A stretch of DNA of 64,000 nucleotides, from NCBI RefSeq assembly GCF_000027125.1, contig NC_017626.1; one strand, 5' to 3'. Shown here one piece after another: positions 6,912 to 6,973 of this stretch. The position numbers were made by a program, and so were the translations under genes. This DNA is from Escherichia coli 042. GTDB taxonomy: Bacteria > Pseudomonadota > Gammaproteobacteria > Enterobacterales > Enterobacteriaceae. A model generated the notes under the pieces. The model was not told the origin of the DNA. It made no database searches and worked only from the letters and a program-made list of their open reading frames with translations. The first letter of the stretch is position 1. The number at the start of each line of letters is the position of its first letter.

Positions 6912-6973
6912 TGGCGGAGAGAGGGGGATTTGAACCCCCGGTAGAGTTGCCCCTACTCCGGTTTTCGAGACCG
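6912..6973 (-). tRNA. 3' fragment (about 62 nt) of tRNA-Ser(CGA), serU-like; prophage attachment-site remnant
   Basis: Matches the tRNA 3' end (CCA, acceptor stem, T-arm GGTTCAAATCC, variable arm, anticodon loop CGA) then diverges abruptly into AT-rich phage DNA. Confidence 0.75.

Follow-up and report, generated by a model that had tools for sequence, protein, structure and literature searches.

The stretch of DNA that we analysed, 64,000 nucleotides of Escherichia coli 042 (contig NC_017626.1; hereafter the window), begins with 6.9 kb of chromosome in which msrP, msrQ and zinT lie in chromosomal order. The last chromosomal gene before an insertion is zinT (5592-6242, + strand), an open reading frame annotated at the equivalent place in GTEN_97, NCCP12480 and K-12, and it is followed by gene-free intergenic DNA (6243-6911) that forms the B arm of an att junction and matches the unoccupied site of NCCP12480 at 100% identity, with nothing annotated in it. 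Next to this arm lies a displaced 3' fragment of the tRNA-Ser(CGA) gene serU (6912-6973, - strand), which is unique in the window and which, flanked by the chromosome arm on one side and a phage P' arm on the other, is the core of the integrase-distal att junction. At the unoccupied locus of NCCP12480 and K-12 the gene order is zinT, serU (- strand), mtfA and asnT.

Read on the - strand, window 6912-6973 is CGGTCTCGAAAACCGGAGTAGGGGCAACTCTACCGGGGGTTCAAATCCCCCTCTCTCCGCCA and agrees at 62/62 nucleotides with positions 29-90 of the 90-nt serU gene (reference NCCP12480, K-12); window positions convert as 7002 minus the tRNA position. The fragment runs from the encoded CCA through the T arm, the variable arm and the anticodon loop (6963-6969) to four of the five bases of the anticodon-stem 5' strand, its 5' edge being the second base of that stem. 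ARAGORN and Rfam call no tRNA at 6912-6973, which is what a gene fragment should give, and with neither a promoter nor a 5' half the remnant is inert. Each of its halves, searched with up to three mismatches, occurs once in the window and never in 100 shuffles, and is therefore neither a chance match nor part of a tandem array; the same search of the halves found no second serU fragment within the window.

To place this junction in the species, window 6243-7400 was compared by megablast with 5,426 complete E. coli genomes. All except one (5,425/5,426) match the flank, with most matches stopping at 6973 inside an annotated tRNA-Ser, so that the break is seen population-wide, and 422 of the 5,426 carry the junction plus the phage arm. 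Matches to phage genomes begin at 6974, and the first open reading frames beyond are phage tail-fibre genes. K-12 has yodB (a cytochrome b561 homologue) between zinT and serU, a gene absent from the window: about 995 bp of K-12 (L003 3006-4000) are replaced by 222 bp at window 6243-6464, an arrangement also present in NCCP12480 and GTEN_97, and tblastn detects no yodB remnant in the zinT-serU spacer. Nor did tblastn with yodB or scans for Rfam families (by E-value) and for terminators reveal a hidden gene or sRNA in this 670-bp spacer, the Rfam hits being weak and all to the tRNA-like fragment itself.

These results bear out most of what the original prediction, made from the letters of the window, had said about this end. 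The 62 nucleotides are indeed the 3' part of tRNA-Ser(CGA), although the extent then given, from CCA to the anticodon loop, was slightly short, the four stem bases being included as well. The abrupt stop with phage DNA behind it is where it was placed, and in the proposed comparison with prophage-free E. coli the left flank is continuous with unoccupied sites up to base 6973. The claim that no gene lies between zinT and the remnant also agrees with RefSeq, which is empty there in the two genomes with the same interval (GTEN_97, NCCP12480).

Prophage body, nested satellite and integrase end

The phage side opens with the P' arm (6974-7325), which is non-coding, contains two copies of the octamer ATTCCAAG and is contiguous with the tRNA block both in the attP of viral contigs and in phages ev099 and mEp332. 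An 11-bp tandem duplication of TTTTGCCTGTG (two copies, 7177-7198) lies in this arm, a few bases past 7169, where the similarity to ev099 and mEp332 stops. Behind the arm comes the late region (7326-27717, - strand) with a hypothetical gene, tail fibres, Lom, tail and head genes and the C-terminal part of terL, all at 98-99% identity to the annotated GTEN_97 prophage. Pfam places this C-terminal part of the interrupted terL at 26981-27706 (- strand).

What interrupts terL is a nested satellite of 15.2 kb (27718-42962, - strand), recognised by its junctions and Pfam content and absent from the GTEN_97 prophage. Repeats of 7 bp (TTGGTAA) mark its junctions (27711-27717 and 42956-42962), an open reading frame at 41560-43983 (- strand) joins the terL N-terminus in frame with a P4-type integrase, and its genes, all on the - strand, are int, Bro-N, DUF927, capsid, S78 protease, portal, TerS and a complete TerL. 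Helper-embedded phage-inducible elements (PICI) have been described with a terminase site among those listed (Tommasini et al. 2023; PMC10111431). Lying inside a late gene of a prophage, co-oriented with it and with a PICI-like gene order, the satellite fits the helper-embedded PICI type. The prophage terL is interrupted, and present-day mobility of the prophage is thus only putative.

The remainder of the prophage (42963-63104) comprises the terL N-terminus, TerS, lysis genes, tRNA-Arg and tRNA-Met, Q, hok/sok, replication and immunity genes, DicF/dicB and an exonuclease. Its RNA genes are STnc100, tRNA-Arg(UCU), tRNA-Met, sok and DicF (47753-47942, 48639-48891, 52552-52727 and 59909-59960); GTEN_97 has hokD beside sok and a tRNA set of Gly, Thr, Lys and Ile at the corresponding place. 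No stx, cdt or effector genes were found in the prophage parts examined.

At the far end, a DUF4224 open reading frame (63105-63308, + strand; Pfam DUF4224, E=1.9e-15) occupies the excisionase position and has 36% identity to Sb29, annotated as the excisionase of ST64B (E=2e-9). It is followed by a tyrosine integrase (63308-64000, + strand) that is cut by the window edge after the first 231 of 341 codons, the last 110 falling past base 64000; the part within the window is 100% identical to the integrases of GTEN_97 and 689R5. The full-length enzyme (L006 1672-2697) has the Pfam domain Phage_integrase (PF00589, E=1.7e-11 for the full-length homologue) plus SAM-like and central domains and keeps the catalytic R, K, H, H and Y. 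A Lys stands in place of the catalytic Arg311 of lambda Int (HDLK vs HELR) in all four serU-type integrases that we compared (this prophage, ST64B, Chris1 and KpF5) and, because all four members have it, this Lys is a family trait and no lesion. The integrase gene bears the PGAP label 'frameshifted' in GTEN_97, strain 4/4 and Z1323CEC0012, with its 341-codon frame uninterrupted.

What follows the integrase is known through GTEN_97, in which 6243-7400 and 56000-64000 of the window are matched at 100% identity. Here the order is zinT, remnant, a 41-kb lambdoid prophage, the DUF4224 open reading frame, integrase, intact tRNA-Ser and mtfA, with the intact tRNA gene 27 bp past the integrase and in the orientation of the remnant (L004 43888-43977, - strand). 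GTEN_97 is without the 15.2-kb element and differs in the Q-lysis region, where identity to the window is 87-95% in patches and the phage tRNA sets differ, and no complete genome among the 5,426 holds the window's middle in one piece. Projected from GTEN_97, the integrase stop would lie at 64333 and intact serU is predicted at 64386-64475, starting 386 bp beyond the window end, so that the intact copy is known by proxy; the projected insert, with one core copy counted, is 57,474 bp long (~57.5 kb). The junction of integrase arm and tRNA is no rarity, since 1,146 of the 5,426 genomes have it, O157:H7 and O111 among them, with identity reaching 100%.

Hence, of the expectations originally attached to this end, the integrase needs to be relocated, as it had been put past 64000 and in fact starts at 63308 with 231 codons inside the window. 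An intact tRNA-Ser past the integrase is found as expected in GTEN_97 and in the 1,146 junctions, the copy of the strain's own genome being known by proxy only. The two att copies, whose alignment had been proposed as a check, agree in GTEN_97 at 60 of 62 positions; they differ at the other two, and full identity is unnecessary.

The attP sequence and the probable region of strand exchange

With a search pattern that spanned the P arm, the block and the P' arm and left the two polymorphic positions free (N), we found the predicted attP contiguous in two IMG/VR viral contigs (L023 and L024). Both have int, xis and exo on one side and the P' arm with tail-fibre genes on the other, so that the attP of these contigs agrees with the circular junction to be expected from the sequences at either end of the prophage. 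Other candidates for a free-phage attP were discarded: the records of 689R5 and 606R7 include mtfA and asnT and are thus lysogen-derived attR, and in ev099 and mEp332 it is E. coli chromosome that faces the P' arm across the block, with their own lambda Int 2.4 kb off.

More distant relatives point to the same attachment block. Integrase homologues with 58-60% identity are encoded by Citrobacter phage Chris1, Klebsiella phage KpF5 and Salmonella phage ST64B, and in all three a 3' block of tRNA-Ser(CGA) lies 50-110 bp past the int stop, its edge at the identical nucleotide (...GAGACCG). For ST64B, excision forming attP has been measured experimentally (PMC12455584). In a stretch of about 17 nt just 3' of the tRNA, the P arms of four phage lineages are semi-conserved with the E. 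coli chromosome (TAAGTnnTTGA; window 6893-6911; GTEN_97 L004 43868-43887; attP of L010, L011 and L012), a conservation from which it follows that att similarity reaches slightly past the gene.

As for binding sites in the arms, ATTCCAAG is found in the P' arm at 7013-7020 (- strand, inverted) and 7078-7085 (+ strand). The 49 kb of GTEN_97 contain five copies, all no more than about 115 bp from the att cores: three overlap the int 3' end in the P arm and two lie in the P' arm. In total count the octamer is not enriched, either in the window (3 vs 2.7 expected) or in GTEN_97 L004, where the 5 copies against 2.0 expected are reached by 8/100 shuffles and are not significant. Their clustering at the att arms, and this only, is suggestive of candidate arm-type integrase sites.

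Where within the block the strands are exchanged may be read from two positions of the variable arm. The regenerated tRNA of GTEN_97 has G48 and C59 where its own remnant and native serU have A48 and T59; as positions 48 and 59 pair in the variable-arm stem, this double change is compensatory. In window coordinates they are 6954 and 6943, and the remnant has A48-U59. Both IMG/VR attP contigs carry G48/C59, and one of them shares the arm SNP of GTEN_97. Given a G..C attP, and A..T in the remnant but G..C in the regenerated gene, we infer that crossover took place 5' of position 48 and within 29-47, a placement that relies on the attP allele of two contigs since the allele pattern alone is symmetric between exchange in the anticodon loop and exchange further 3'. 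The putative strand-exchange region is hence tRNA 29-47 (6955-6973, - strand), which consists of GAGT and the stem-loop CGGT/CTCGAAA/ACCG. Four diverged phage lineages (this prophage, Chris1, KpF5 and ST64B) have the identical 5' block edge, the block just encloses the CGGT/CTCGAAA/ACCG dyad, and exchange most likely occurs across the 7-nt anticodon loop.

G48/C59 is no phage-only marker, and we dropped this idea because the predicted absence of the pair next to chromosomal flank failed in about 104 records. These chromosomal-flank G..C records include unoccupied serU sites (L017, L018, L020-L022) and one G..C remnant, that of the cdt-I prophage lysogen SCU-115 (L019); conversely, phage-arm-linked A..T copies also exist in lysogens. 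Overall, G..C makes up about 65% of phage-arm-linked copies vs about 2% of chromosome-flank-linked ones, with the reservation that clonal O157:H7 sampling may inflate the 788 records of exact arm plus G..C. We found no G.U intermediate allele, the single-mismatch class being a C/T SNP in the P arm. Four G..C unoccupied sites have a 650-bp flank 100% identical to that of A..T strains, and G..C is also present on two other flank haplotypes. This haplotype pattern is better matched by an exchange of the block between phage and chromosome than by two point mutations.

Integration into serU as the best-supported reading, and its alternatives

Taken jointly, these observations make it very probable that the remnant is the serU 3' tail displaced by integration of a lambdoid prophage. 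The unoccupied sites, the regenerated gene of GTEN_97 and the contiguous attP all speak for what had been claimed at the outset, namely a displaced att copy left by integration into a tRNA gene. In molecular terms, a lambdoid temperate phage would enter the single-copy serU tRNA-Ser(CGA) gene by site-specific recombination, catalysed by its own tyrosine integrase of the CP-933U/ST64B type. Its attP holds a 62-nt copy of the tRNA 3' part (positions 29-90), and strands would be swapped in the anticodon stem-loop, where the CGGT/ACCG stem halves would act as core binding sites in inverted orientation. Fusion of the phage 3' block to the first 28 nt of the bacterial gene would thereby yield a working tRNA gene by the integrase, just past base 64000, and the original bacterial 3' block would be stranded beside zinT at 6912-6973. 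The insert of ~57.5 kb would then be the sum of a helper prophage of ~42 kb and the embedded 15.2-kb satellite. Direct observation covers what the fragment is, the exact junction, the unoccupied sites, the regenerated gene of a near-identical lysogen, attP in viral contigs and the integrase family; in this scheme the parts that we infer are the exchange points within 29-47, the arm-type sites and the intact tRNA gene in the strain's own genome.

Could the remnant be older than the prophage that now adjoins it? An earlier serU phage may have made it, with the prophage body since partly replaced by lambdoid recombination; we regard this as unlikely, albeit as the most serious of the alternatives. 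GTEN_97 and the window are 99-100% alike at their ends and 87-95% in the Q-lysis region and differ in the 15.2-kb insert, the P' arm is common to unrelated lambda-Int phages, and serU prophage replacements have been reported in O145:H28 (PMC7067040), all of which favours such a past. The arms and the integrase nonetheless form one att system that is contiguous in the attP of two contigs and has ATTCCAAG in both arms, and the window is without a second serU fragment. Replacement of the body would in any case alter the history and leave the nature of the feature unchanged. Considerably less probable is a crossover in the T-loop or the 3' acceptor region, in which case the GTEN_97 pattern would reflect entry of an A..T phage into a G..C host. 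Chromosomal G..C on a flank haplotype identical to the window's does exist, as do phage-arm A..T blocks; against this stand the two attP sequences observed, both G..C and one with the arm SNP of GTEN_97, as well as the skew of G..C towards phage-arm-linked copies (~65% vs ~2%). A crossover so far 3' would also leave unexplained why the block edge lies at exactly 29 in four diverged phages.

Finally, junctions of this kind can travel as cargo. The complete lambda-Int phages ev099 (L008 5370-5904) and mEp332 (L005 2051-2585) carry within their b region a 536-bp block corresponding to window 6634-7169 and made up of chromosome (278 bp), the 62-nt remnant and P' arm (196 bp). The block is also present in a STEC313 prophage at the bio/ybhB locus, attB-lambda (L013 6001-6535), where it adjoins an AraC-family gene and transposase remnants. 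This fossil attL(serU) probably arose when a phage excised imprecisely from serU, and module exchange would have moved it later. The existence of such blocks might be taken to mean that the junction in the window, too, is fossil attL(serU) cargo in phage DNA and no chromosomal boundary, yet we give this next to no credence: the window flank runs 6.9 kb to the left via zinT, msrQ and msrP in chromosomal order, and it is 100% identical to unoccupied sites well past the 278 bp of the fossils.

serU among tRNA-gene attachment sites

The locus has what marks an att junction in a tRNA gene, that is a 3' fragment at the edge, relatives with an unoccupied site, an adjoining integrase and an attP block, as well as, by proxy only (GTEN_97; 1,146 genomes), a regenerated tRNA. 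In the Islander survey, regenerated tRNA and displaced fragment mark the ends of islands, its counts being 3,760 for islands with a 3' fragment and 2,083 for those whose attP is anticodon-centred (PMC4383910). In the anticodon-centred 'A' class (Williams 2002 NAR 30:866; PMC4383910) the block extends from the anticodon stem to the 3' end, likewise here, without any essential difference: the length of 62 nt reflects the long variable arm of tRNA-Ser, and a single compensatory base pair can distinguish the phage copy from that of the host. The serU remnant is thus an already known, ordinary type of prophage boundary mark.

Among systems closer by, the common site is shared with the serU prophages of pathogenic E. 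coli (CP-933U type, O145:H28, Stx phages, SerU-LTIIb and cdt-I). In the case of the O157:H7 serU prophages, the junction of integrase arm and tRNA is identical (100% over 231 bp). What differs is the cargo, the present prophage bearing the embedded satellite. The ST64B record labels its integrase 'similar to CP-933U', and CP-933U is, as we take it, the O157 element at serU. The phage collection holds a record named SerU-LTIIb, and in SCU-115 (L019 3431-5531) a prophage with cdtABC type I lies beside the remnant. The serU gene has been reported as an insertion site of prophages and Stx phages (PMC7067040; PMC8065619).

ST64B, KpF5 and Chris1 resemble our prophage in having a xis-like gene upstream of int; they differ in that they belong to other host genera and have P' arms unrelated to the window's, and the ST64B block follows the Salmonella tRNA. 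Like phage lambda, the prophage has a heterobivalent tyrosine integrase, arm sites (here candidates) and an upstream xis, whereas attB of lambda is intergenic with a 15-bp core and the core here, with 62 nt of identity, is part of a tRNA gene. The ev099/mEp332 fossil in turn resembles a product of lambda-bio-type imprecise excision that captured chromosome past the int-distal junction, which is the origin that we propose. In UPEC_U013 (L009 4183-5568) the homology ends at window 6925, leaving just 14 nt of the tRNA 3' end, and beside the break lie a pilV shufflon gene and an integrase of 406 aa, a pattern suggestive of a second sublocation for crossover in serU.

For annotation, our findings fix the integrase-distal prophage boundary to nucleotide 6973/6974 and identify the insert as a serU-specific lambdoid prophage, while the remnant and the predicted regenerated tRNA together set the insert size at ~57.5 kb. 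A remnant alone is insufficient as proof of a boundary because junction copies travel in lambda-type phages; hence, a serU remnant marks a boundary only with chromosomal flank continuing beyond. Also, searches for exact repeats can miss or mis-size the core because att copies may differ by the compensatory pair.

For the host, the same scheme would make the sole tRNA-Ser(CGA) gene of the lysogen a host-phage hybrid. It is conceivable, though to our minds somewhat short of an even bet, that the A48-U59/G48-C59 allele is traded between attP and chromosome and that the ~2% of chromosomal G-C copies are a footprint of past lysogeny, left through prophage loss. In such a case homologous recombination within the 62-nt repeats, at a point 3' of position 59, would have removed a G-C prophage, and the RecE-type exonuclease of the prophage itself may have helped. 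If true, prophage turnover would silently rewrite the variable arm of a host tRNA, the very arm that is recognised by seryl-tRNA synthetase.
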